Source: Schmidtea polychroa (Eukaryota). From it: a stretch of DNA of 64,000 bases. The notes below the pieces were generated by a model that saw nothing but the letters and a program-made list of their open reading frames with translations, made no database searches and was not told the DNA's origin. Of the stretch, positions 1 to 59,900 are shown one piece after another (within the stretch, counting starts at the first letter, position 1; each line of letters starts with the position of its first letter). The position numbers and the translations under genes are program-made. The DNA is taken from assembly GCA_044892525.1 (NCBI GenBank), contig CM097885.1:18106001-18170000 (forward strand). Direction: 5' to 3'.

Positions 1-170
1 AAGTTGTCAATATAAATATCGATAATCCCATGTATTTACCAATAGCAAGTTCATGTATAAACAATATAGAAATAAATATTCGTGATGATAGTGGAAAACT
101 TATAAACTTTCCAAAAGGTTCAAAAACTCATTTGACATTACATTTTCGTAAAGTAGATGGCAAATTCTGA
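1..170 (+). CDS. Polinton/adintovirus penton (minor capsid), C-terminal part, copy A
   Basis: Identical to the end of 30240..31313 (IEINIRDDSG...HLTLHFRK). Confidence 0.8.
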   Translation, partial: VVNINIDNPMYLPIASSCINNIEINIRDDSGKLINFPKGSKTHLTLHFRKVDGKF

Positions 171-520
171 TATTATTAGTATGTATAGTGGTAGCCAATC
201 TGGTGGCGAATTACCATATTTTATTGGTAAACAGTACGGATCGTGATGGTTGAGAACAATTGGTAGATTTGCATTGCCTATTCTTAAACGTATTGGTAGT
301 TTTGGTATGAAAACTGCAAAAGACGTTATTATGAATGAACAGAAAATATTACCATCTCTAAAAACAAATGCTTTAGCTGAATTAGGGAAAGTCTTACCAG
401 GGGTTGCAGGTATGTTTCAAAAAATCTCCAGCTCCCGCTCCTGTTCCAAAACGTAAAAGACATGGAATATCACGTATAAACAAACGAATGAAAGGACATG
501 GAACTATATTTGCAAAATGA
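157..520 (+). pseudogene. Polinton small basic/amphipathic core protein, copy A (nonsense TGA at 244-246)
   Basis: Same as 31300 ORF but GGA>TGA; also has the shared frameshift in the A-run at ~419-424. Confidence 0.7.
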
Positions 521-643
521 TTTGTGGTAAATCTGAATTATGTATATTTGATAGACCGTCGCCCCAGGCTGTAATAGAATTTGGGGCATTTGAGGAAGTT
601 TTTCCTATGAATTCAATTACCGATAGTAGAAATGATATAGAGT
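517..643 (+). pseudogene. Hexon (major capsid) N-terminal fragment, truncated by retroelement sequence (also 31660..31786, 55229..55355)
   Basis: MICGKSELCIFDRPSPQAV...NDIE, 3 mismatches seen versus 6401..6527. Confidence 0.85.
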
Positions 644-2264
644 AAATCAAAGTACAGGAGAGACCCCTTTTTACTTGATGTATTTAAGGAAAAATAATAT
701 GCCGATTGATCTCAAATTCCAACCACCAATTTCACAATATATGGAGATACCCGATTATAAAGCAGGTTTGACAATAAAGCACAACCAAGAGAAATATAAA
801 GAATCATACGATAAAAAAGCACATGCGCATGGCATAAAGATTGGAGATCTAGTATATCTGAACAGACCGGAACCTCTCAAAGGTTTATCGCCTAAATTGC
901 AAAGACCATTTAAAGGACCCTACAAAGTGTGCGACACCACCGAAACCAATTTGAAGTTATTACCATTCAGGAGTAAAAAGGCTAACCCGATGATTGTGCA
1001 TGCAAATCGATGTAAACTAGTGCCAGAGGAAGATGAATCTAGATACCCCTTAAGATCCAAGCAGAATAAAGTAACGGGTCAAACAAAATTGAAACAGAAA
1101 TTCACGAAAAATCCAACACCAGTCAGCTACATCAATAAGATATTATATGTAGCAATAATGCTGATGTTAGTAACAGTTGCGAGCGGCAAAAAGATTGATT
1201 TACCATATGCGGTAAACAAAATCCGAGGAATGGAGAAAATACATATATATTCCACTCTAACAAATATAGTATGGAGCTGTAAATGCGAGATCGCAGACCA
1301 AATAGAAATTATTAATTTACTAGCCAATACGGCACCAGTGGTAGAACTGAATTATGATAAAGATATAGTTGCGGTACGAAAGTTAAAGCCAAATTACAAA
1401 TACCAATGGCTGTTGAGACAGAACATGTCAAAGTGGTACACGCAAATTCCGATAGAAGTGCACACAAAAGAGATGCGAAACTTGATCGAGATAGAACCAG
1501 AGATAAACGGAATCAATATATATTGGAAGCCAGTGGACTTGGTGAAAGTGCGACTCACATTTCAAGGGTTAAATGTCGACACCCTTAACTCGCGAAAATC
1601 ATTTATCCGCTACGAGAAATTGAAAATGAATCAAAATTATTCAGTTAATGCAAACTACTACGAGAACATATGCCTCGAAAATGGAACGGTAGTGAGAAAC
1701 CAGTGGTCACGATTTAAGAGTGAGACCCAGTCTATCTATCTCAGAGACGAGTCAAATCGTATAACCCTTATATAGAAACGATATATAGTATAAACGATAT
1801 ATAGAAAATCAGGAAATGATGAAAGAGTTGTTATTATCTACAAACAAAAAACCCTGACTATATTAGATGCCGGTAATCATTTTTTTACACTTTACACTTC
1901 TGATTTAGAGACGGCATGGGAATTAACAGTTAAATATCAGCGATGGATAACCGATCCAGGCAGATGGCAAACAGTTTTCGTGGAAGTCAAGACAATCAAT
2001 GAATCGAAACGAAAATCATATACAACCACATCACCTTTCCAATTACCGACCCAAGAGACGACAAAACCTAACTCAAACAAACTAATGATGATAAATTCGG
2101 ATTTGACAGTCAACTATTGTGAATATCTCATTTACATTTTAATAACAGGTTTTCTCATCTTATCAATAACATTCATAATCATCACCATCTTGATATGTGT
2201 AAAAGAGAGACAACTAACTATCCTTCAACCACCATCATATTCATATTATGAGACAAGACTATAA
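642..2264 (+). mobile_element. Gypsy-type retroelement 3' part: integrase C-terminus fused in frame to an env-position membrane protein, copy A
   Basis: STGETPFYLMY, IGDLVYL, SPKLQRPFKGPYKV (GPY/F), VHANRCK, RYPLRS; then hydrophobic ILYVAIMLMLVTVASG. ORFs 675 and 1980 share one frame, separated by stops at 1773 and 1791; C-terminal TM. Confidence 0.8.
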
Positions 2265-2446
2265 ATTGTGATCTGCATGAATAGTGTATAAAAAAAAATA
2301 TATATTACATTTATATTAACAATGTGCATGTTTTATAAGTACCATAGGATGAACTGTGTAATTTGTTTGAGATTCGAAGCGAGGTGTTGATGCTTTGCGA
2401 ATAAAGAGTGATACAAAAAAAAATAACTATCATTTAATTTCAGAGA

Positions 2447-2692
2447 ATGCAAGAAGCCTCGGAGATGACATGCAAAGAGTGTAAAACAAGTACGCAAGAA
2501 CTAAAACAAAAGTTTCGTAGCATGCAGGGCAGAATAACAGATTTGGAGGAAGAAAACTTCCGTCTGAAAAGGCGGTTGGACCGTTTGGAAATCTTATTGT
2601 TTCAACACGAAGCCGATTTCGCGATGTTTCGAATGAGAGTAGAAGAAATGGAGGAATCGGAAGATGATGGTGAGATAAATCAATTAGACTAA
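2447..2692 (+). CDS. Small coiled-coil protein with CxxC and acidic tail (also 33590..33835, 57159..57404)
   Basis: Heptad ITDLEEENFRLKRRLDRLE; preceded by acceptor-like tttcag; coding-like composition. Confidence 0.55.
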   Translation: MQEASEMTCKECKTSTQELKQKFRSMQGRITDLEEENFRLKRRLDRLEILLFQHEADFAMFRMRVEEMEESEDDGEINQLD

Positions 2693-3145
2693 AAAAATAA
2701 ATTATTTAAACGGACCCTGTTGGTGTTTTTTCGTCCTCGAGAAAAAAAAATAATAGTTAAATAATTATAAGTAAATTAACAAATAATCAAATGAATAAAC
2801 AAATTGATATAAATAAATAAGTAAAAAAGTGATAAATTAAATGAATGAATAATAGATAAAAATGAACAAAGTTAAACGAGCAAATAGAATAACTCAAATA
2901 AATGTTGCAAATAATGAAATGACTACCTTAAATGAGCATTAGAAATAAATAATATGGCTGATTAGTAATTAATGAATTAGCATAACTATATAGCAATGGG
3001 TAACCCACTGGGCGAGAGAACAAAATTTTAAATAAGTAAGGAATAATTTAGTAGTAACAAAGACTAATCGCGAAGAGGGACACAATTACCCCACCCTTTC
3101 TAGCATAAATTAAAAACAAAGGTATGCTGAACATTTATTCAAAGT

Positions 3146-3450
3146 TTATTCGTCATCAGAGTCCAACAGAACGGGACTTTGGATGCCACAGTCCCATTCC
3201 CTGCGTACATTGCAAGGCGGGCGTCGTTCAAACCTACTGCCTGTATCCACACAGGCAAAGGTACGTTTCAATCCCTTTCGACGCGGTGGTAAAGGGACCC
3301 TGAAAAAGAAATTAAAAAAACCTGTTAGTATGGCAGTTAAATAACCATTGCATAACATCGAGATGTTCAAACTTAGGTTCTGGCACAGCCTAAAATAGTA
3401 AGGGTTGAAAAGAAAAAACGAAATAAATACTATGTAAAACTCCGTACCAT
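3146..3450 (-). CDS. Small spliced antisense gene of unknown function (also 34289..34593, 57858..58162)
   Basis: GT-AG introns 3390..3447 and 3300..3345 join to MAVPEPKFEHLDVMQWVPLPPRRKGLKR...VLLDSDDE*. Confidence 0.5.
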
Positions 3451-3720
3451 GGCGCCCTCGACAAATAATTAGTGCAGGGAAGTAATTGATTTTAAGAATT
3501 ACGTAATAAATTAATAAGTATAAATACGGCTAAAATTGTCAGAAAAATACGAGTAGCTGTAATTAGAGGTTTGCTTTTAGTATAAATACAAAATCAAAAA
3601 TCAAAAATATATGACCCAAAACATGAGTGTAGGTAGTTGCATAAACAAATTAACGAATTAAAATTAAAAAGTAAATAAGTTAATTTAATAAGCATCAATA
3701 AGTTAATTTAATATGCAACA

Positions 3721-3776
3721 CGAGCACTTGCAATCACCGGGGTTTGGCTACCCTGGACAGCGATTGCAAGTGTTCG
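3721..3776 (+). other. GC-rich stem-loop (also 34864..34919, 58433..58488)
   Basis: cgagcacttgcaatc pairs with gattgcaagtgttcg (15 bp, 1 G-U); inner ccggggt/accctgg stem. Confidence 0.7.
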
Positions 3777-3989
3777 GTTACTATGAGGGTAGTTGAGGAC
3801 AGCATGGTAAAAAGAATCACAAATACAAAAAATAACAAAAGATAGTTAATCACTTACGTCCATAGTAATTGAGGGATGGCGTTACTAAAATTCAAAGAAA
3901 AATATGAAAAAGAAAAATAAAATATAAAATGCTTACTTCAAGATTGGCAAGACAAAACTAACGAAAAGTGGTAAAGCAGAAACTTATAT

Positions 3990-4128
3990 AGAACGCTTAT
4001 CAGTACAGACTACGTTGACAAACTACAGAGTAATTAATTAGAAAGCTTATCAGCACGGCTACGTAAGAAACCACAGGGTAATTAATTATAGAGCCTATCG
4101 GTATCGGCTACGTCAAAAACCGCAGGAT
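3990..4128. repeat. Three diverged ~50-bp tandem repeats, enhancer-like
   Basis: gcttatcag..ctacgt..aaac.acag.gtaattaatta repeated, third copy partial. Confidence 0.65.
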
Positions 4129-6400
4129 AAGAAAAAATTCATTCGGAATATTAATGTTCATCGCAGATACCTTATCAGGCTGAGTAAACAGTCGGTCGGT
4201 GCGGGGGAGATTAACTTTTTACCATGCTGCGAGCGAAATAAACCAACAAGTTATTAATAACAAAAAAAAAATTATTTTTAAATCATAATATTAATAATAA
4301 TAGTAATAATGATGAAAGGAAAAAAAAAATAATAAAATAAATAAATTACCTTGCAACTGAGAATAAATTAGGCATATATTCTGCACATAAAAATCGATTT
4401 CCGCAATCAATAAAATAAAAAAAATTTTATCAGTGGTTTATCAAAATAAAAGCACCAGAAAATTCGAGTCACAATGGCTTCCAAAATTCAATATGCGCTC
4501 CCTAGAAATATTTAAAACCAACCAATTCTGTTATTGGGTTGAGCTAATTTTTGTTCCCGGGTCGATAATAAAATTTGCGGTTGTGTCTGATAAGTAGAAT
4601 GACTGACCAATCAGATTGAAATACATTCACCATTGGGATGAATTTTGAAGAAAATTGACACACACATACACGCAAGTGCACTCATTTATAGATACACACA
4701 AAGAACCCCGATTAATGTACAAGTACCGTGAACTACTTAATCGTAAAGACACACACACAGACAGACACACAAGCATGATTCCAACAAAATATAATTTAAT
4801 TTAAAAATTTTTTTGAAACAACTAAATAACTTTTTATGATTGCAATTTTTTTATGAATTAATTATTCAAATCAAACTTTATTTTCATCTCAGAGAATTAA
4901 AATTTTTATGAGAATTTACGTGGATAATAAAATTAAAACAACTTTTGAATGTTAAATGAATATGTAGACCACATAATTTAGCTAATTGAATGTCTTTAAT
5001 TTGGCCATTTTGCTTCAATTTCCACTTTTGTATAAAGAAATTATATTAAATCAATTTCACCTTTAATACTTTTTCAGTGTTCTGTACCTCAGAATACTCA
5101 AATGAAATACTGTACGACACCATTTTTGAGTAATTCACATTTTGCGATTAAATAGTTTCATTTATTTTTAATTACCTCCTAATGAAGATTTTTAAGTAAA
5201 ATAATTTTCACTATGTTTTCAATTTTTTTTAAAATAATAATCTAATTAAAATATTTAATATGAATTAATCATAAAACTTAAATTTTTGAAGAAGTTTATG
5301 TTTCACGTAGATCATCAATTCTTAACATTCCTCAATCATTGCTTCTAACTGCATAGCATTCTGGAACCATATATTCATATCTCTAATAAATTCATCATTT
5401 ATTCTGAGAGAGGTTTTAACTACAATAACCTTACCAGACTGTCTTTGGTCTACTCGACCATTTGAAAGATCCTGAAAATGTCTAATATCAGATAATATCT
5501 TTAACTGTGTTTCGGATCAGAATTAAATAACTGTATCCTGAAAAAAAAAGGATCAGATAATATCCTAAAAATCAATGCCAACAGTAGATACGAAAGCTGA
5601 CGTAAAACTATCACCAGCACAACGAAATAAAAATGAAGTTTTCCCAACTGAATTATTTTTAGCATACATTGTTGAACGTCTGGAATAAAATTGGTGCGTG
5701 GTCCGCAAACGGTTAAATTGATTTCTTTCTTTTCTTCACAATGACTTGGTGAAACAGCTAAAAATTTACATCGATATAAATATTATATAACCAAATTCGG
5801 GTGCCATTACAAAATTACCTAAAACAATCGGTCGCCGATAGTTGACTAACAAAATATATGAGGCATAATCAAGTTAAATATTATTTAATAGTATATATTA
5901 CATAAAAGTTTTTATAATCTTGTAAATGAAACCAAAAAAAAAATATTTCTTGCCAAATATTGATTCGATTGATAACATTGATCACATTTGGATATTCAGT
6001 CATATTATTTTTACACAAAATATATAAACCTAAATTCAAGTTGCAAAATTAAAATTGAAATCATGTTTCACTACCATTCAAAATACTATCTTGATCAATG
6101 AACTCTTGGTAATATAAATAATATAAGCCTTGTTCGGTTCGGAACGAAATCAATTTTTCAACATCACTGATAAACTAATTACCAAAAACGGAACACGATT
6201 TTCCAATAATTAAAATTTTAAACATAATCAGAGTTTTGATCTTGCTTTCTTGATTTTGGAATCGTAATAATCTGATCAGAACTAAATAACTGTACTGTCA
6301 ATCTGAGGGAAATTTCAAATACATATGGGAAATGGCTCAACGAATCACACGAAGAGGATTTATTCGTGCTCACAATTTTTCATTGGACTATATTTGCAAA

Positions 6401-7622
6401 ATGATTTGTGGTAAATCTGAATTATGTATATTTGATAGACCATCGCCCCAGGCTGTAATAAAATTTGGGGCTTTTGAGGAAGTTTTTCCTATGAATTCAA
6501 TTACCGATAGTAGAAATGATATAGAGTTTTATATTAATGGTTCGCAAACTGAATATTTAGATTTGAACGATACTTTATTGACTGTTCAGATCAAGGTTGT
6601 AGATAAAGATAGAAAAGTTTTGGATGCCAATGCAGATGTAATACCGAACAATTTCCTGTTTCATACTCTTTTTAAATGCAGTGTTGGGATTTAATAATAT
6701 CAAGATTGAGGGTGGAAATAATACATTCATTCACAAGGCATTAATAGAAACTATTTTAAATTACAATTCCGATACTAAAAATACATGCCTTACTCCTATG
6801 GGTTATGCAGCAGCAGATGATGAAAGAAAAAAGTGGGTTAAAGGCTCAAAGGTTTTCACCATGTGCTCATCATTACAACTCGATTTTATGGATCAACCGA
6901 AATATTTACTACCGGGAGTTAATGTACATATTAGACTGAAAAGGTCTGATTCTGTATTATCTCTTACTAGTGCAAATGGTGCACCAATATGTCAATTAGT
7001 TGATGCAAAATTATTGGTGAGAAGAGTTAGAGTAGACCCCTTAGTATTAGCTGGTCATCAATTAGGTCTTAATTCAAAACATGCAATTTATCCATTAAAA
7101 ACAAAGGAAATTGTACAATTCGCTATTGCTAAAGGTGCTTCATCATTCTATAAAGAACAAATATTTGGTGACAGAAGAATGCCTAATTTTATTCTGATAA
7201 CATTTCAAAGTGAAGCACAATATAATGGATCATATATTGCGTCCAGCTCAATTTTCAAAAACTTTGGTGTTACATCATTGACTTTGTCGAAAAATACTGA
7301 TTATAGAGAAACATATATTCAAGATTTCGAAAATGACAATTACTGTGCGACATATATGCAGAGTATTGTTAGAAATCTGGGTTATTTAGATAAAAATTTG
7401 AATTGTGGAATAACTCTAGAAGAATTTAAAAGCAAATACCCATTTTTTACATTTGTTTCAGCCCCTGATTTTGATTTAAATCAGAGTCAATTACCTCAAA
7501 ATGGAAATTTACGACTGGATATAAAGTTTGCAAAAGCTATTACTGAACCAGTACATGTTACAATATATGGAGTATTTGAAAATGAAATTCAAATTACTGC
7601 AAATAGAACTGTGTTGGTATAA
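6401..7622 (+). pseudogene. Polinton/adintovirus hexon (double jelly-roll major capsid), one frameshift at ~6676-6686, copy A
   Basis: KSEL.IF, IEFYING..EYLDLNDTLL, QPKYLLPGVNVHIRLKRS, GNLRLDIKFAKA motifs; split over ORFs 6332 and 6681. Confidence 0.85.
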
Positions 7623-7649
7623 ATGTATATTGAAACACAAAAAGTTGTC

Positions 7650-8033
7650 ATGGAGTAAGTTTTTTTATACTGTTTAATTTATTAAAGTAGTTCTGTTCAG
7701 GTTAATCGAATTGGAAAACAAATATTGGGAAATGAATTTGTTGGAGTTTTTCCTCTTGATAAAATTCCATATTTGAGCAATAATCAAGCAATAATCGTCA
7801 ATACTCAATCGTCTCATCTTGGTGGAGAACATTGGATAGCTATATATATGAAACCTGGTAATATATTCGTGTTCGATCCTATGGGTTTTTATTACCCAGC
7901 TTTGTTGATATCAAAACTACAAACAATGGGGAAACCTATCGTGTATAATAAAACTATGTTTCAAAATCCATTGACCCAAACATGTGGTCAACATTGTTTA
8001 GCTTGGTTGTTGTATAAAAAATTTGATGTTTAA
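7650..8033 (+). CDS. Adenain-like cysteine protease (Polinton PRO) with a 36-nt intron, copy A
   Basis: FVGVFP.D, IVNT..S..GGEHWIAI, FDPMG, FQ...TQTCGQHC (His/Asp/Gln/Cys); intron 7655..7690. Confidence 0.88.
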
Positions 8034-30159: not shown

Positions 30160-30294
30160 ATTCCTTCTCCAAAAGTATTTAGAATTCAAAAAATATTGAA
30201 AACTAAAAAGGTCGGCAAGGATAAACAATACTATGTCAAATGGCATGGTTATCAAAACCCGTCATGGATATCAGCAAAAGACCTAGTAAAGTGA
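30160..30294 (+). pseudogene. Chromodomain C-terminus of the Polinton retroviral-like integrase (also 53729..53863)
   Basis: [36 protein letters not shown]; not in the ORF track; stop overlaps the probable penton start. Confidence 0.8.
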
Positions 30295-31313
30295 ATTTTT
30301 ATACTATTTTGCCGAGCAATAGTTGCTCATTAATTCATCCAGACAATCAAGCCAGTAAATTTATGGTCAATCTCCAGAATCCGATTTCTTTAAATGGTGA
30401 CTGGGAAGTTGCACTGCAAGATTTTACATTCGTGTACAACACATTCCCATTTTATAGTCAATGTAAGATTGATTTCAAAAGGAATATTGTGAAAACATGT
30501 AGCGGTATCTTTATTATCAGTAATTATGATAAAACATATCATATTCCGAATCAAATATTAGATTCGCATTGCTATATGTTTTACAAGGATGGATTAAATA
30601 TCAGTTGTGATTTTAAACCATTTACAATAACATTCGAAACTATTGAAGATGCCAAACGAATGGGTTGCAATAAGTTGAAAAATATTGTTACAGAGATCGA
30701 GTATTTATTACGTTTTAATCTATTTGAAGCAAACAGTGTAATGAAAGAAGAAATCAAAATATCGGTCTCGTATAATGATGAAGTTGAAGAATCATTTACC
30801 TTTGCTGATGAATTATATTTTGATAAACTCGATGTATTACTTAAATATTTAAAGTTCAATTGTTCACACATATTTAAAAATTTGGAAATTGTGAAAGATT
30901 TGATGTTTACCTTCAGTTTGAATGATGATATTTGCGAAGTTACATTTGATAAAAATTTGGCAAATTCACTTGGATTAGATAAGCAAAAATATCGAGAAAA
31001 ATCGACTGGTATACGCAAACCAAGAATACTAGAACATCATCAACAAATGTTCATATATACTAACATTATCGAACCCATAATTGTTGGTGATTCCAATGTT
31101 CCTCTTTTGAAATCGGTATGGATTGGCAAATATGAACATGATGAAGTTGTCAATATAAATATCGATAATCCCATGTATTTACCAATAGCAAGTTCATGTA
31201 TAAACAATATAGAAATAAATATTCGTGATGATAGTGGAAAACTTATAAACTTTCCAAAAGGTTCAAAAACTCATTTGACATTACATTTTCGTAAAGTAGA
31301 TGGCAAATTCTGA
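30240..31313 (+). CDS. Polinton/adintovirus penton (minor capsid), copy B; homologous start probably 30291
   Basis: FYTILPSNS..HPDN..SKF.V.L..PI.L.GDWEVAL; FIYTNIIEPIIVGD..VPLLK; IEINIRDDSG..F..G..LTLHFR. Confidence 0.85.
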   Translation: MAWLSKPVMDISKRPSKVNFYTILPSNSCSLIHPDNQASKFMVNLQNPISLNGDWEVALQDFTFVYNTFPFYSQCKIDFKRNIVKTCSGIFIISNYDKTYHIPNQILDSHCYMFYKDGLNISCDFKPFTITFETIEDAKRMGCNKLKNIVTEIEYLLRFNLFEANSVMKEEIKISVSYNDEVEESFTFADELYFDKLDVLLKYLKFNCSHIFKNLEIVKDLMFTFSLNDDICEVTFDKNLANSLGLDKQKYREKSTGIRKPRILEHHQQMFIYTNIIEPIIVGDSNVPLLKSVWIGKYEHDEVVNINIDNPMYLPIASSCINNIEINIRDDSGKLINFPKGSKTHLTLHFRKVDGKF

Positions 31314-31663: not shown

Positions 31664-31784
31664 TTTGTGGTAAATCTGAATTATGTATATTTGATAGACC
31701 GTCGCCCCAGGCTGTAATAGAATTTGGGGCATTTGAGGAAGTTTTTCCTATGAATTCAATTACCGATAGTAGAAATGATATAGA

Positions 31785-33407
31785 GTAAATCAAAGTACAG
31801 GAGAGACCCCTTTTTACTTGATGTATTTAAGGAAAAATAATATGCCGATTGATCTCAAATTCCAACCACCAATTTCACAATATATGGAGATACCCGATTA
31901 TAAAGCAGGTTTGACAATAAAGCACAACCAAGAGAAATATAAAGAATCATACGATAAAAAAGCACATGCGCATGGCATAAAGATTGGAGATCTAGTATAT
32001 CTGAACAGACCGGAACCTCTCAAAGGTTTATCGCCTAAATTGCAAAGACCATTTAAAGGACCCTACAAAGTGTGCGACACCACCGAAACCAATTTGAAGT
32101 TATTACCATTCAGGAGTAAAAAGGCTAACCCGATGATTGTGCATGCAAATCGATGTAAACTAGTGCCAGAGGAAGATGAATCTAGATACCCCTTAAGATC
32201 CAAGCAGAATAAAGTAACGGGTCAAACAAAATTGAAACAGAAATTCACGAAAAATCCAACACCAGTCAGCTACATCAATAAGATATTATATGTAGCAATA
32301 ATGCTGATGTTAGTAACAGTTGCGAGCGGCAAAAAGATTGATTTACCATATGCGGTAAACAAAATCCGAGGAATGGAGAAAATACATATATATTCCACTC
32401 TAACAAATATAGTATGGAGCTGTAAATGCGAGATCGCAGACCAAATAGAAATTATTAATTTACTAGCCAATACGGCACCAGTGGTAGAACTGAATTATGA
32501 TAAAGATATAGTTGCGGTACGAAAGTTAAAGCCAAATTACAAATACCAATGGCTGTTGAGACAGAACATGTCAAAGTGGTACACGCAAATTCCGATAGAA
32601 GTGCACACAAAAGAGATGCGAAACTTGATCGAGATAGAACCAGAGATAAACGGAATCAATATATATTGGAAGCCAGTGGACTTGGTGAAAGTGCGACTCA
32701 CATTTCAAGGGTTAAATGTCGACACCCTTAACTCGCGAAAATCATTTATCCGCTACGAGAAATTGAAAATGAATCAAAATTATTCAGTTAATGCAAACTA
32801 CTACGAGAACATATGCCTCGAAAATGGAACGGTAGTGAGAAACCAATGGTCACGATTTAAGAGTGAGACCCAGTCTATCTATCTCAGAGACGAGTCAAAT
32901 CGTATAACCCTTATATAGAAACGATATATAGTATAAACGATATATAGAAAATCAGGAAATGATGAAAGAGTTGTTATTATCTACAAACAAAAAACCCTGA
33001 CTATATTAGATGCCGGTAATCATTTTTTTACACTTTACACTTCTGATTTAGAGACGGCATGGGAATTAACAGTTAAATATCAGCGATGGATAACCGATCC
33101 AGGCAGATGGCAAACAGTTTTCGTGGAAGTCAAGACAATCAATGAATCGAAACGAAAATCATATACAACCACATCACCTTTCCAATTACCGACCCAAGAG
33201 ACGACAAAACCTAACTCAAACAAACTAATGATGATAAATTCGGATTTGACAGTCAACTATTGTGAATATCTCATTTACATTTTAATAACAGGTTTTCTCA
33301 TCTTATCAATAACATTCATAATCATCACCATCTTGATATGTGTAAAAGAGAGACAACTAACTATCCTTCAACCACCATCATATTCATATTATGAGACAAG
33401 ACTATAA
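31785..33407 (+). mobile_element. Gypsy integrase tail plus membrane protein, copy B
   Basis: Duplicate of 642..2264. Confidence 0.8.
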
Positions 33408-36400
33408 ATTGTGATCTGCATGAATAGTGTATAAAAAAAAATATATATTACATTTATATTAACAATGTGCATGTTTTATAAGTACCATAGGATGAACTGT
33501 GTAATTTGTTTGAGATTCGAAGCGAGGTGTTGATGCTTTGCGAATAAAGAGTGATACAAAAAAAAATAACTATCATTTAATTTCAGAGAATGCAAGAAGC
33601 CTCGGAGATGACATGCAAAGAGTGTAAAACAAGTACGCAAGAACTAAAACAAAAGTTTCGTAGCATGCAGGGCAGAATAACAGATTTGGAGGAAGAAAAC
33701 TTCCGTCTGAAAAGGCGGTTGGACCGTTTGGAAATCTTATTGTTTCAACACGAAGCCGATTTCGCGATGTTTCGAATGAGAGTAGAAGAAATGGAGGAAT
33801 CGGAAGATGATGGTGAGATAAATCAATTAGACTAAAAAAATAAATTATTTAAACGGACCCTGTTGGTGTTTTTTCGTCCTCGAGAAAAAAAAATAATAGT
33901 TAAATAATTATAAGTAAATTAACAAATAATCAAATGAATAAACAAATTGATATAAATAAATAAGTAAAAAAGTGATAAATTAAATGAATGAATAATAGAT
34001 AAAAATGAACAAAGTTAAACGAGCAAATAGAATAACTCAAATAAATGTTGCAAATAATGAAATGACTACCTTAAATGAGCATTAGAAATAAATAATATGG
34101 CTGATTAGTAATTAATGAATTAGCATAACTATATAGCAATGGGTAACCCACTGGGCGAGAGAACAAAATTTTAAATAAGTAAGGAATAATTTAGTAGTAA
34201 CAAAGACTAATCGCGAAGAGGGACACAATTACCCCACCCTTTCTAGCATAAATTAAAAACAAAGGTATGCTGAACATTTATTCAAAGTTTATTCGTCATC
34301 AGAGTCCAACAGAACGGGACTTTGGATGCCACAGTCCCATTCCCTGCGTACATTGCAAGGCGGGCGTCGTTCAAACCTACTGCCTGTATCCACACAGGCA
34401 AAGGTACGTTTCAATCCCTTTCGACGCGGTGGTAAAGGGACCCTGAAAAAGAAATTAAAAAAACCTGTTAGTATGGCAGTTAAATAACCATTGCATAACA
34501 TCGAGATGTTCAAACTTAGGTTCTGGCACAGCCTAAAATAGTAAGGGTTGAAAAGAAAAAACGAAATAAATACTATGTAAAACTCCGTACCATGGCGCCC
34601 TCGACAAATAATTAGTGCAGGGAAGTAATTGATTTTAAGAATTACGTAATAAATTAATAAGTATAAATACGGCTAAAATTGTCAGAAAAATACGAGTAGC
34701 TGTAATTAGAGGTTTGCTTTTAGTATAAATACAAAATCAAAAATCAAAAATATATGACCCAAAACATGAGTGTAGGTAGTTGCATAAACAAATTAACGAA
34801 TTAAAATTAAAAAGTAAATAAGTTAATTTAATAAGCATCAATAAGTTAATTTAATATGCAACACGAGCACTTGCAATCACCGGGGTTTGGCTACCCTGGA
34901 CAGCGATTGCAAGTGTTCGGTTACTATGAGGGTAGTTGAGGACAGCATGGTAAAAAGAATCACAAATACAAAAAATAACAAAAGATAGTTAATCACTTAC
35001 GTCCATAGTAATTGAGGGATGGCGTTACTAAAATTCAAAGAAAAATATGAAAAAGAAAAATAAAATATAAAATGCTTACTTCAAGATTGGCAAGACAAAA
35101 CTAACGAAAAGTGGTAAAGCAGAAACTTATATAGAACGCTTATCAGTACAGACTACGTTGACAAACTACAGAGTAATTAATTAGAAAGCTTATCAGCACG
35201 GCTACGTAAGAAACCACAGGGTAATTAATTATAGAGCCTATCGGTATCGGCTACGTCAAAAACCGCAGGATAAGAAAAAATTCATTCGGAATATTAATGT
35301 TCATCGCAGATACCTTATCAGGCTGAGTAAACAGTCGGTCGGTGCGGGGGAGATTAACTTTTTACCATGCTGCGAGCGAAATAAACCAACAAGTTATTAA
35401 TAACAAAAAAAAAATTATTTTTAAATCATAATATTAATAATAATAGTAATAATGATGAAAGGAAAAAAAAAATAATAAAATAAATAAATTACCTTGCAAC
35501 TGAGAATAAATTAGGCATATATTCTGCACATAAAAATCGATTTCCGCAATCAATAAAATAAAAAAAATTTTATCAGTGGTTTATCAAAATAAAAGCACCA
35601 GAAAATTCGAGTCACAATGGCTTCCAAAATTCAATATGCGCTCCCTAGAAATATTTAAAACCAACCAATTCTGTTATTGGGTTGAGCTAATTTTTGTTCC
35701 CGGGTCGATAATAAAATTTGCGGTTGTGTCTGATAAGTAGAATGACTGACCAATCAGATTGAAATACATTCACCATTGGGATGAATTTTGAAGAAAATTG
35801 ACACACACATACACGCAAGTGCACTCATTTATAGATACACACAAAGAACCCCGATTAATGTACAAGTACCGTGAACTACTTAATCGTAAAGACACACACA
35901 CAGACAGACACACAAGCATGATTCCAACAAAATATAATTTAATTTAAAAATTTTTTTGAAACAACTAAATAACTTTTTATGATTGCAATTTTTTTATGAA
36001 TTAATTATTCAAATCAAACTTTATTTTCATCTCAGAGAATTAAAATTTTTATGAGAATTTACGTGGATAATAAAATTAAAACAACTTTTGAATGTTAAAT
36101 GAATATGTAGACCACATAATTTAGCTAATTGAATGTCTTTAATTTGGCCATTTTGCTTCAATTTCCACTTTTGTATAAAGAAATTATATTAAATCAATTT
36201 CACCTTTAATACTTTTTCAGTGTTCTGTACCTCAGAATACTCAAATGAAATACTGTACGACACCATTTTTGAGTAATTCACATTTTGCGATTAAATAGTT
36301 TCATTTATTTTTAATTACCTCCTAATGAAGATTTTTAAGTAAAATAATTTTCACTATGTTTTCAATTTTTTTTAAAATAATAATCTAATTAAAATATTTA

Positions 36401-55232: not shown

Positions 55233-55353
55233 TTTGTGGTAAATCTGAATTATGTATATTTGATAGACCGTCGCCCCAGGCTGTAATAGAATTTGGGGCA
55301 TTTGAGGAAGTTTTTCCTATGAATTCAATTACCGATAGTAGAAATGATATAGA

Positions 55354-56976
55354 GTAAATCAAAGTACAGGAGAGACCCCTTTTTACTTGATGTATTTAAG
55401 GAAAAATAATATGCCGATTGATCTCAAATTCCAACCACCAATTTCACAATATATGGAGATACCCGATTATAAAGCAGGTTTGACAATAAAGCACAACCAA
55501 GAGAAATATAAAGAATCATACGATAAAAAAGCACATGCGCATGGCATAAAGATTGGAGATCTAGTATATCTGAACAGACCGGAACCTCTCAAAGGTTTAT
55601 CGCCTAAATTGCAAAGACCATTTAAAGGACCCTACAAAGTGTGCGACACCACCGAAACCAATTTGAAGTTATTACCATTCAGGAGTAAAAAGGCTAACCC
55701 GATGATTGTGCATGCAAATCGATGTAAACTAGTGCCAGAGGAAGATGAATCTAGATACCCCTTAAGATCCAAGCAGAATAAAGTAACGGGTCAAACAAAA
55801 TTGAAACAGAAATTCACGAAAAATCCAACACCAGTCAGCTACATCAATAAGATATTATATGTAGCAATAATGCTGATGTTAGTAACAGTTGCGAGCGGCA
55901 AAAAGATTGATTTACCATATGCGGTAAACAAAATCCGAGGAATGGAGAAAATACATATATATTCCACTCTAACAAATATAGTATGGAGCTGTAAATGCGA
56001 GATCGCAGACCAAATAGAAATTATTAATTTACTAGCCAATACGGCACCAGTGGTAGAACTGAATTATGATAAAGATATAGTTGCGGTACGAAAGTTAAAG
56101 CCAAATTACAAATACCAATGGCTGTTGAGACAGAACATGTCAAAGTGGTACACGCAAATTCCGATAGAAGTGCACACAAAAGAGATGCGAAACTTGATCG
56201 AGATAGAACCAGAGATAAACGGAATCAATATATATTGGAAGCCAGTGGACTTGGTGAAAGTGCGACTCACATTTCAAGGGTTAAATGTCGACACCCTTAA
56301 CTCGCGAAAATCATTTATCCGCTACGAGAAATTGAAAATGAATCAAAATTATTCAGTTAATGCAAACTACTACGAGAACATATGCCTCGAAAATGGAACG
56401 GTAGTGAGAAACCAATGGTCACGATTTAAGAGTGAGACCCAGTCTATCTATCTCAGAGACGAGTCAAATCGTATAACCCTTATATAGAAACGATATATAG
56501 TATAAACGATATATAGAAAATCAGGAAATGATGAAAGAGTTGTTATTATCTACAAACAAAAAACCCTGACTATATTAGATGCCGGTAATCATTTTTTTAC
56601 ACTTTACACTTCTGATTTAGAGACGGCATGGGAATTAACAGTTAAATATCAGCGATGGATAACCGATCCAGGCAGATGGCAAACAGTTTTCGTGGAAGTC
56701 AAGACAATCAATGAATCGAAACGAAAATCATATACAACCACATCACCTTTCCAATTACCGACCCAAGAGACGACAAAACCTAACTCAAACAAACTAATGA
56801 TGATAAATTCGGATTTGACAGTCAACTATTGTGAATATCTCATTTACATTTTAATAACAGGTTTTCTCATCTTATCAATAACATTCATAATCATCACCAT
56901 CTTGATATGTGTAAAAGAGAGACAACTAACTATCCTTCAACCACCATCATATTCATATTATGAGACAAGACTATAA
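55354..56976 (+). mobile_element. Gypsy integrase tail plus membrane protein, copy C
   Basis: Duplicate of 642..2264. Confidence 0.8.
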
Positions 56977-59900
56977 ATTGTGATCTGCATGAATAGTGTA
57001 TAAAAAAAAATATATATTACATTTATATTAACAATGTGCATGTTTTATAAGTACCATAGGATGAACTGTGTAATTTGTTTGAGATTCGAAGCGAGGTGTT
57101 GATGCTTTGCGAATAAAGAGTGATACAAAAAAAAATAACTATCATTTAATTTCAGAGAATGCAAGAAGCCTCGGAGATGACATGCAAAGAGTGTAAAACA
57201 AGTACGCAAGAACTAAAACAAAAGTTTCGTAGCATGCAGGGCAGAATAACAGATTTGGAGGAAGAAAACTTCCGTCTGAAAAGGCGGTTGGACCGTTTGG
57301 AAATCTTATTGTTTCAACACGAAGCCGATTTCGCGATGTTTCGAATGAGAGTAGAAGAAATGGAGGAATCGGAAGATGATGGTGAGATAAATCAATTAGA
57401 CTAAAAAAATAAATTATTTAAACGGACCCTGTTGGTGTTTTTTCGTCCTCGAGAAAAAAAAATAATAGTTAAATAATTATAAGTAAATTAACAAATAATC
57501 AAATGAATAAACAAATTGATATAAATAAATAAGTAAAAAAGTGATAAATTAAATGAATGAATAATAGATAAAAATGAACAAAGTTAAACGAGCAAATAGA
57601 ATAACTCAAATAAATGTTGCAAATAATGAAATGACTACCTTAAATGAGCATTAGAAATAAATAATATGGCTGATTAGTAATTAATGAATTAGCATAACTA
57701 TATAGCAATGGGTAACCCACTGGGCGAGAGAACAAAATTTTAAATAAGTAAGGAATAATTTAGTAGTAACAAAGACTAATCGCGAAGAGGGACACAATTA
57801 CCCCACCCTTTCTAGCATAAATTAAAAACAAAGGTATGCTGAACATTTATTCAAAGTTTATTCGTCATCAGAGTCCAACAGAACGGGACTTTGGATGCCA
57901 CAGTCCCATTCCCTGCGTACATTGCAAGGCGGGCGTCGTTCAAACCTACTGCCTGTATCCACACAGGCAAAGGTACGTTTCAATCCCTTTCGACGCGGTG
58001 GTAAAGGGACCCTGAAAAAGAAATTAAAAAAACCTGTTAGTATGGCAGTTAAATAACCATTGCATAACATCGAGATGTTCAAACTTAGGTTCTGGCACAG
58101 CCTAAAATAGTAAGGGTTGAAAAGAAAAAACGAAATAAATACTATGTAAAACTCCGTACCATGGCGCCCTCGACAAATAATTAGTGCAGGGAAGTAATTG
58201 ATTTTAAGAATTACGTAATAAATTAATAAGTATAAATACGGCTAAAATTGTCAGAAAAATACGAGTAGCTGTAATTAGAGGTTTGCTTTTAGTATAAATA
58301 CAAAATCAAAAATCAAAAATATATGACCCAAAACATGAGTGTAGGTAGTTGCATAAACAAATTAACGAATTAAAATTAAAAAGTAAATAAGTTAATTTAA
58401 TAAGCATCAATAAGTTAATTTAATATGCAACACGAGCACTTGCAATCACCGGGGTTTGGCTACCCTGGACAGCGATTGCAAGTGTTCGGTTACTATGAGG
58501 GTAGTTGAGGACAGCATGGTAAAAAGAATCACAAATACAAAAAATAACAAAAGATAGTTAATCACTTACGTCCATAGTAATTGAGGGATGGCGTTACTAA
58601 AATTCAAAGAAAAATATGAAAAAGAAAAATAAAATATAAAATGCTTACTTCAAGATTGGCAAGACAAAACTAACGAAAAGTGGTAAAGCAGAAACTTATA
58701 TAGAACGCTTATCAGTACAGACTACGTTGACAAACTACAGAGTAATTAATTAGAAAGCTTATCAGCACGGCTACGTAAGAAACCACAGGGTAATTAATTA
58801 TAGAGCCTATCGGTATCGGCTACGTCAAAAACCGCAGGATAAGAAAAAATTCATTCGGAATATTAATGTTCATCGCAGATACCTTATCAGGCTGAGTAAA
58901 CAGTCGGTCGGTGCGGGGGAGATTAACTTTTTACCATGCTGCGAGCGAAATAAACCAACAAGTTATTAATAACAAAAAAAAATTATTTTTAAATCATAAT
59001 ATTAATAATAATAGTAATAATGATGAAAGGAAAAAAAAAATAATAAAATAAATAAATTACCTTGCAACTGAGAATAAATTAGGCATATATTCTGCACATA
59101 AAAATCGATTTCCGCAATCAATAAAATAAAAAAAATTTTATCAGTGGTTTATCAAAATAAAAGCACCAGAAAATTCGAGTCACAATGGCTTCCAAAATTC
59201 AATATGCGCTCCCTAGAAATATTTAAAACCAACCAATTCTGTTATTGGGTTGAGCTAATTTTTGTTCCCGGGTCGATAATAAAATTTGCGGTTGTGTCTG
59301 ATAAGTAGAATGACTGACCAATCAGATTGAAATACATTCACCATTGGGATGAATTTTGAAGAAAATTGACACACACATACACGCAAGTGCACTCATTTAT
59401 AGATACACACAAAGAACCCCGATTAATGTACAAGTACCGTGAACTACTTAATCGTAAAGACACACACACAGACAGACACACAAGCATGATTCCAACAAAA
59501 TATAATTTAATTTAAAAATTTTTTTGAAACAACTAAATAACTTTTTATGATTGCAATTTTTTTATGAATTAATTATTCAAATCAAACTTTATTTTCATCT
59601 CAGAGAATTAAAATTTTTATGAGAATTTACGTGGATAATAAAATTAAAACAACTTTTGAATGTTAAATGAATATGTAGACCACATAATTTAGCTAATTGA
59701 ATGTCTTTAATTTGGCCATTTTGCTTCAATTTCCACTTTTGTATAAAGAAATTATATTAAATCAATTTCACCTTTAATACTTTTTCAGTGTTCTGTACCT
59801 CAGAATACTCAAATGAAATACTGTACGACACCATTTTTGAGTAATTCACATTTTGCGATTAAATAGTTTCATTTATTTTTAATTACCTCCTAATGAAGAT

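Follow-up and report, generated by a model that had tools for sequence, protein, structure and literature searches.

Flatworm GAG-ENV-POL "errantiviruses" with an HSV/gB-type env were described by Chary and Hayashi (eLife 2026; PMC13524379), in which the elements were classed by GyDB profiles and 215 copies of Smed_errantivirus_2 were listed. According to the Discussion of that paper, the entry of gB-type elements is unexplained, since herpes gB needs gD, gH and gL (PMC13524379). In the available text on the Atlas virus of hookworm (Belpaoviridae), a single Gag-Pol-Env polyprotein contains a GN attachment-like protein and a GC fusogen; GN is the more variable of the two, as attachment proteins tend to be (PMC9094657). 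The accessible portions of two further reports describe HTLV-1 Env, which uses a class I PDZ motif with DLG1 for cell-cell fusion (PMC4810129), and sORF2 of MDG1-group retrotransposons, which is an extra transmembrane protein linked to cell-to-cell transfer (PMC11952523). The locus analysed here belongs to an enveloped-type Ty3/gypsy clade with the GAG-ENV-POL layout that encodes two surface proteins in one polyprotein, as seen from domain order, predicted fold and conservation: a viral-type fusogen before pol and a membrane protein with fibronectin type III (FN3)-like domains behind the integrase.

The window is the whole stretch of DNA that was analysed (64,000 nucleotides). An internal gypsy fragment was located on its forward strand at positions 641–4398 by alignment to an open natural copy at L013 (96.8% identity over 3813 columns), and comprised the membrane protein between the end of the integrase and a portion of the 3′ region. 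The fragment was 5′-truncated and carried a short in-frame deletion near 765. It had no LTR and no integrase core; hence, the window piece is a dead fragment, carried as a passenger in a tandem segmental duplication. The sequence-only reading of the locus had proposed that a gypsy integrase continues in frame into a membrane protein. This fusion is supported, the membrane protein being of type I, and all of the motifs named in that reading were found in a single frame (window 651–2262): STGETPFYLMY at 651, GPY at 915, RYPLRS at 1041, NIVW at 1263, LKPNYKY at 1383, NIYW at 1515, LKMNQNY at 1620, the tail QPPSYSYYETRL at 2226 and the stop codon at 2262. The further claim that the frame has no interruptions other than two stops (1773 and 1791) within a local duplication was borne out in the window sequence, where a 13-nt unit was duplicated at 1776 and 1792. 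Among 12 family loci compared at the lesion site, six were open, one was out of frame, and five carried the two stops, all of the latter from the tandem array.

The features of the fragment followed one another on the forward strand. The C-terminal part of the integrase, with the GPY/F module, the deletion near 765 and no catalytic core, occupied 641–1037 (weak MLVIN_C match, E 0.11). A basic linker at 1038–1139 ended in a cross-family motif (KFTKNP at 1098) and may contain a protease site. The predicted internal signal peptide at 1140–1187 had small residues at −3/−1 in all lineages, as judged by eye. FN3-like domains 1, 2 and 3 were assigned to 1224–1472, 1476–1748 and 1746–2015 (residues 13–95, 97–187 and 187–275 of the structural model), and the third was the one broken by the two stops. 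A Thr/Pro/Ser-rich stalk at 2016–2123 was poorly conserved in the alignment and coincided with low pLDDT from model residue 275 onward. It was followed by the predicted transmembrane helix at 2124–2201 (hydropathy 2.8 in the open copy) and by the cytoplasmic tail at 2202–2264, with PPSY at 2229 (family A, i.e., the window's family, only) and the terminal class I PDZ-binding motif ETRL at 2250. Two natural lengths of the tail (window 2226–2261) occurred among the open family copies. The window has the longer one, which was also present in all four sequencing runs compared (X1, X3, X7 and X16). In the 3′ region, a small 81-aa coiled-coil-like ORF at 2447–2692 on the same strand was also present in the open copy and gave only sub-threshold coiled-coil matches in Pfam.

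The fragment was present three times in the window, with the later copies at offsets of 31143 and 54712 from the first. The second copy (31784–35541, forward strand) differed at 1 of 3758 bases and had the same two stops at 32916 and 32934; the third (55353–59110, forward strand, end approximate) had them at 56485 and 56503. These copies lie in a tandem segmental duplication at 18.04–18.17 Mb of contig G000:C1, with units of 23.6–31.1 kb at 99.6–99.9% identity, which could be genuine or an expansion in the assembly. The units also hold an amidase (FAAH-like) gene, an exon of an Ets gene and an RT fragment with inverted repeats. The 5′ truncation, the LTR absence, the deletion near 765 and the triplication had escaped the earlier reading. 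To the left of the fragment (window 1–645), and also at 6381–8033 and 30225–31313, Maverick/Polinton-like remnants with an adenain-type protease (PF00770) were found; their capsid-like ORFs, which gave no Pfam match, are taken by us to encode capsid. The start of one such ORF (517–645) directly adjoins the gypsy fragment where the duplication breakpoint lies. A Maverick-gypsy hybrid was ruled out by the array's first copy, 55 kb upstream, in which gag, fusogen and pol follow an ordinary 5′ LTR, the same two stops are present and no Maverick DNA lies upstream. Position 640/641 is thus probably a duplication breakpoint, because this first copy is a normal gypsy element without Maverick DNA before it. 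Since the copy in the window is disrupted and lies at the breakpoint of a rearrangement, the fusion might be regarded as an accidental juxtaposition or as a host exon captured neutrally; we assign this a negligible probability. The protein was found in frame in many open copies, in six families and in a distant lineage, and its pN was far below pS; these sequence comparisons refute both versions.

A genome search with a 225-aa query gave 1211 candidates, of which 150 were scored; all of these were 94–100% identical, 136 had no stop within the query, and 17 lay in open frames of at least 3200 aa by hand count. The downstream ORF was therefore kept in intact relatives, both in these copies (136/150 stop-free in the query) and in six families. 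The open natural copy (L013/L014), read as separate stretches, had a single frame of ~3334 aa in the order gag, ubiquitin-like domain, Bcl-2-like domain, fusogen, PR-RT-RH-IN and then the membrane protein. Its Pfam matches were gag, three zinc knuckles, ubiquitin and Bcl-2 (both weak), a Monjiviricetes fusion glycoprotein, protease, RT, RNase H and integrase. Two signal-like and two transmembrane segments were seen in the polyprotein, and one of each belonged to the FN3 protein; the signal-like segment and transmembrane helix proposed from the window alone were thus both recovered in the open copy as hydrophobic segments. LTRs of ~1.06 kb with TG...CA ends were paired at 99.5–99.9% identity in L013/L014 and in five of seven further copies, the remaining two giving no LTR match within the stretches taken. 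Target-site duplications of 4 bp were seen by eye in four of five LTR-paired copies. The primer-binding site was complementary to tRNA-Trp(CCA) genes of the host, and a purine tract preceded the 3′ LTR. The tRNA-Trp(CCA) pattern itself matched 856 times genome-wide; a long tandem gene array with a 284-bp period lies on G000:C4 from 55.02 Mb (L085), and not all of the matches are inside it. LTRs, the primer-binding site and polypurine tract, gag and the pol order PR-RT-RH-IN were all present, in agreement with the definition of Metaviridae (Ty3/gypsy) used here, which asks for a gag with CA and NC and for a pol arranged as PR-RT-RH-IN (PMC7879559). The near identity of the LTR pairs indicates recent activity, and family A is, by these sequence measures, young and high-copy. 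The stretch at 4420–10000 of L013 was also contained in sequencing runs X1, X3, X7 and X16, which bear three organism labels. A 9754-nt contig of X3 included the integrase and the membrane protein as well as some of the 3′ region, and differed at 73 of about 3830 bases. None of the runs listed as containing the stretch was an RNA run, and the contigs had no splice joint with good support; neither observation informs on expression. Recent cross-species spread would be indicated if the run labels correspond to distinct species.

The gB/chuvirus-type fusogen (PF24664) lay between the zinc knuckles and the protease, with E 6e-93 in family A. It scored above the cut-off in all five families scanned by Pfam (E 6e-93 to 2e-86) and was identified in family G by alignment; a profile search by sequence gave no match of this fusogen to a solved structure. 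The sequence-only reading had suggested that the FN3-type protein stands in for a classical fusogen as env, and its canonical env position downstream of the integrase agrees with that view. This part of the reading failed, because a gB/chuvirus-type fusogen was found between gag and protease in every full-length family checked and was the better conserved of the two proteins, and the array's own first copy carries it as well. Replacement is refuted for this clade; it could hold only in a lineage without an upstream fusogen, and we consider it extremely improbable. The FN3 protein accompanies the fusogen and is not a substitute for one.

Six families of the genome (A, B, C, D, F and G) encoded the membrane protein in frame behind the integrase with 38–69% mutual identity; families other than A came to light in a genome search with a distant homologue, P0001. 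This homologue was the only match to the protein among 1.84 billion representatives, and the protein databases as a whole gave no matches beyond P0001 and P0002. Both entries represent a single lineage, for which no loci were found in metagenome or viral contigs. P0002 derives from a 2.8-kb metagenome contig, too short to include the 5′ part with the fusogen region, in which the integrase and the protein share one frame (68–71% identity in the integrase, 22–23% in the C-terminal part). In all 15 family pairs, pN of the ectodomain was 0.17–0.43 against a pS of 0.54–0.80, with synonymous sites near saturation, indicating that the membrane protein is under purifying selection between families. 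The corresponding pN was 0.05–0.18 for the fusogen and 0.03–0.11 for the integrase. In terms of identity between families, the FN3 protein (38–69%) was the most variable of the three, followed by the fusogen (69–90%) and the integrase (80–94%). Recent copy-to-copy pairs gave dN/dS values from 0.17 to 1.1, a spread expected because post-insertion decay mixes with selection, and these values were not used as evidence. The integrase, fusogen and FN3 trees had compatible topologies that set (B,C),A apart from D, G and F, which gives modest support for co-divergence of the three proteins across the 5–6 taxa compared.

The C-terminal ends were ETRL in A, ETTV in B, ETFV in D, ETWV in F and G, and STLV in the P0001/P0002 lineage. 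The class I PDZ-type motif proposed earlier was therefore present in six of seven lineages, whereas S/T-x-V/I/L occurred in 17 of 454 random ORF ends of the window. Because the lineages are related, this represents conservation and not six independent events, and the tail is a candidate class I PDZ ligand. Outside the motif, the tail, which is about 6–23 residues long overall, has diverged. In family C, the motif was absent from all five copies seen, three of which are fully open frames, so the tail is dispensable there. The PPxY motif of the earlier reading is indeed present at 2229 of the window; as it occurred in one of seven lineages, family A only, it is unlikely to be a conserved function.

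The fold of the FN3 protein, about 355 aa long, was evaluated by AlphaFold2 with 31 natural rows from about six lineages. The model contained three beta sandwiches at pLDDT 77 and pTM 0.69, compared with pLDDT 32 for the single-sequence model. The best PDB matches in Foldseek were three-domain fibronectin fragments (E 4e-9), followed by Tie2, CD45 and RPTPs, and the named matches in the viral structure library were mostly FN3, Ig-like and phage tail proteins. VIA-align gave Z 8–9.2 to fibronectin and tenascin, the best being fibronectin (Z 9.2, rmsd 4.4 over 163 residues). Domain 3 also resembled other Ig-like sandwiches (Z 9.8, rmsd 2.0, 77 residues); Z values of 8–9.8 only just exceed common values. 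Whole-chain TM-scores to the fold matches were low, at 0.2–0.3, because the inter-domain angles differ. In hhalign, domains 2 and 3 were recognised as an internal repeat with a probability of 89, and the repeats of domain 1 with domains 2 and 3 were not significant. The FN3-like assignment is made despite the modest Z values because Foldseek, the Atlas feature fn3 (0.92, a feature of low recognition value) and the repeat of domains 2 and 3 agree. The guess of tandem FN3 domains was thus right about the fold, as seen by AlphaFold2, Foldseek and VIA-align, and wrong about the number, which is three beta domains and not two. No fusogen fold was among the fold matches listed for the ectodomain in the PDB and viral libraries. 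With the downstream ORF kept in intact relatives, neither of the outcomes named by the earlier reading as refuting it was seen. At the sequence level, Pfam fn3 (PF00041) matched 0 of 31 rows at E 0.1, and neither the remaining Pfam search nor the search of PDB sequences was informative for the ectodomain. A search for a host donor of the domains covered the 30 best of 104 host fn3 matches, which yielded 338 ORF pieces, and found none (best E 0.026). The protein is therefore FN3-like by its predicted fold and outside Pfam fn3 membership. The missing Pfam fn3 match and host donor suggest that its origin is old or that it has diverged heavily.

The presence of IFNAR1, IL-22R1, gp130, CD45 and Tie2 ectodomains among the fold matches raises the possibility of a host-modulating receptor mimic, that is, a decoy, a signalling mimic or a superinfection block on the infected cell, as an accessory without a role in entry. 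Bcl-2-like, ubiquitin-like and, in two families, ISG20-like domains are carried by the same elements, and fast divergence of the protein would also fit a host conflict. In addition, the available text on a planarian nidovirus reports host-type fibronectin (type II) modules with a proposed role in host modulation (PMC6211748). Nevertheless, fibronectin and tenascin scored as well as or better than the receptors, the tail of about 6–23 residues has no signalling domain, and the protein would be made one-to-one with the fusogen from a single frame. On balance, a receptor mimic is considered unlikely.

The accessory domains were traced individually. The Bcl-2-like domain lies directly 5′ of the fusogen signal peptide (L014 3960–4397, minus strand, and matching parts of L058, L059, L060, L064 and L086). 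It matched the PDB profile of Bcl-xL at E 6e-4 and Pfam at E 0.006–0.025, with an Atlas score of 0.92 for Bcl-2-like 15/BID, and was found in all five families aligned, as a weak match mostly in the BH2 region. One ubiquitin-like domain, or perhaps two, lies between gag and the Bcl-2-like domain (L014 4710–5642, minus strand; L058 and L059), with Pfam ubiquitin at E 1e-5 in family A and at 4e-4 and 0.02 in two others. In families D and G, a second ORF 3′ of the FN3 protein was similar to ISG20/ISG20L2-like exonucleases (E 7e-12), at L086 3265–4725 (minus strand), L089 2–1216 and L090/L091; family A has only the 81-aa ORF at this place. Planarians keep adult pluripotent stem cells. The FN3 protein might accordingly be part of a selfish cell-fitness module, in which it alters the adhesion or niche position of a stem cell that carries the element, the Bcl-2-like domain ensures that this cell survives, and carriers spread within the animal. 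Such a module would draw on the Bcl-2-like domain in all five aligned families and on a PDZ tail suited to junction scaffolds, but the Bcl-2 match is weak (best E 6e-4, mostly BH2 region), and this reading is quite improbable.

Pol-less derivatives of family D were found at L046, L047, L048, L049, L056 and L088–L091, and one form was present in at least seven places, given by six exact matches and L049. The spacer behind the fusogen was joined in frame to the second signal peptide, and this junction was common to all five copies compared. The copy at L088/L089 had both LTRs, a target-site duplication and an open frame of 2263 aa in which both membrane proteins were kept. An independent in-frame pol deletion was seen in family G at L086. 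A mainly structural role was also considered, in which the ectodomain would act as a spacer, and the second signal and transmembrane helix would serve to anchor pol or to assist budding. The topology would tether pol at both ends, and family A has PPSY. However, the ectodomain has three folded domains whose invariant residues persist down to 20% identity. PPxY is confined to one of seven lineages, and the spacer between the fusogen transmembrane segment and the protease (L014 aa ~1745; L058 aa 1819–1824) has P[ST]AP in three of six families and a loose YPxnL in six of six. These late-domain-like motifs behind the fusogen are better candidates than PPSY, and a mainly structural role is very unlikely.

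In the reading that we favour, the FN3 protein would serve the fusogen as a partner for attachment or adhesion, and PDZ scaffolds would position it where cells touch; we regard the matter as evenly poised. The polyprotein would enter the ER membrane twice, each time as a type I protein. An internal signal 3′ of the Bcl-2-like domain would open the fusogen, the transmembrane segment of which would return PR-RT-RH-IN to the cytosol, and a second internal signal 3′ of the integrase would open the FN3 protein. Signal peptidase would then free the fusogen and the FN3 protein, and the element protease would free the gag and pol parts, with pol tethered between the fusogen transmembrane segment and the second signal until it is cut. 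Both glycoproteins would be made one-to-one unless spliced RNAs exist. On the particle or the producer cell, the FN3 protein would act as an attachment or adhesion component beside the class III fusogen, and its tail may bind PDZ scaffolds, which would concentrate the protein at cell contacts or polarised membranes and so serve spread from cell to cell. The attachment reading is favoured because the fusogen lies upstream in five of five families, the ectodomain has three FN3-like domains under purifying selection, and the trees are compatible. It is also favoured by the FN3 protein varying more than the other two, a tendency of attachment proteins, by the widespread PDZ motif, the distant P0002 fusion, the spread of pol-less derivatives with both membrane proteins, and the recent activity. 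Several points weigh against it. A shared fold shows no function because the roles of FN3 domains are diverse. One deletion junction in three would be in frame by chance, and the retention of both proteins in pol-less copies may be passive. Moreover, the tail is dispensable in family C, and class III fusogens can act alone, as rhabdovirus G and baculovirus GP64 do. A more ambitious version is offered tentatively and is rather less probable. It supposes a two-part entry machine from unrelated sources, with a viral class III fusogen before pol and a captured animal-type FN3 adhesion receptor after it. Together with the Bcl-2-like, ubiquitin-like and ISG20-like domains and helper-dependent pol-less derivatives, this would make a complex retrovirus that spreads via PDZ-organised contacts, possibly between species.

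Family A is apparently Smed_errantivirus_2 of Chary and Hayashi. The published element has the same GAG-ENV-POL layout, and its env segment differed from that of L014 at ~5 of 251 residues by eye, which points to a planarian as the likely host. No primer tRNA is listed in the available entry, whereas tRNA-Trp was identified here (PMC13524379). The words fibronectin and Bcl were absent from the searchable text of that paper and of seven supplements, and FN3, ubiquitin and PDZ were also absent from the supplements. No description of a retroelement integrase that continues into a membrane protein with FN3 domains was found in the literature searched, outside subscription journals, Repbase and Dfam. 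The GAG-ENV-POL backbone was already published, while earlier descriptions of the second surface protein and of the remaining accessory domains appear to be lacking. The FN3 protein provides a concrete candidate partner that shares the fusogen's reading frame, and the family encoding it is high-copy, recently active and found in tractable animals, so that the entry question becomes testable. If the attachment reading is true, a retroelement carries a cellular-type adhesion receptor beside a viral fusogen. It also follows that gag-pol-env annotation overlooks accessory genes at both ends of pol.

In canonical Errantivirus elements, the env fusogen is downstream of the integrase, whereas here the downstream protein is FN3-like and the fusogen is upstream. 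Tandem FN3-like sandwiches, a stalk and one transmembrane helix are shared with cellular receptors and adhesion proteins such as fibronectin, tenascin, RPTPs, Tie2 and class II cytokine receptors. The retroelement protein differs from these in having 8–16% identity in structural alignments, no sequence-level match, a very short tail and a polyprotein origin. Like sORF2, as far as described in the accessible text, it is an additional transmembrane protein encoded by an LTR element. sORF2 is a short FAST-like protein that takes the place of Env, whereas the FN3 protein accompanies a fusogen. A C-terminal S/T-x-hydrophobic motif on a viral membrane protein is likewise known from HTLV-1 Env and other viral envelope proteins in the portions of the literature available, but in HTLV-1 it is the fusogen that carries the PDZ motif. 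In the present elements, the motif belongs to a protein distinct from the fusogen, because the fusogen tail continues into the protease. The Atlas virus, judged from the available text, is similar in having one polyprotein with two glycoproteins, one attachment-like and one a fusogen. Both of its glycoproteins come from one phlebovirus-like cassette after pol, with a class II fusogen, whereas the elements described here combine a class III fusogen before pol with a cellular-type FN3 protein after it.
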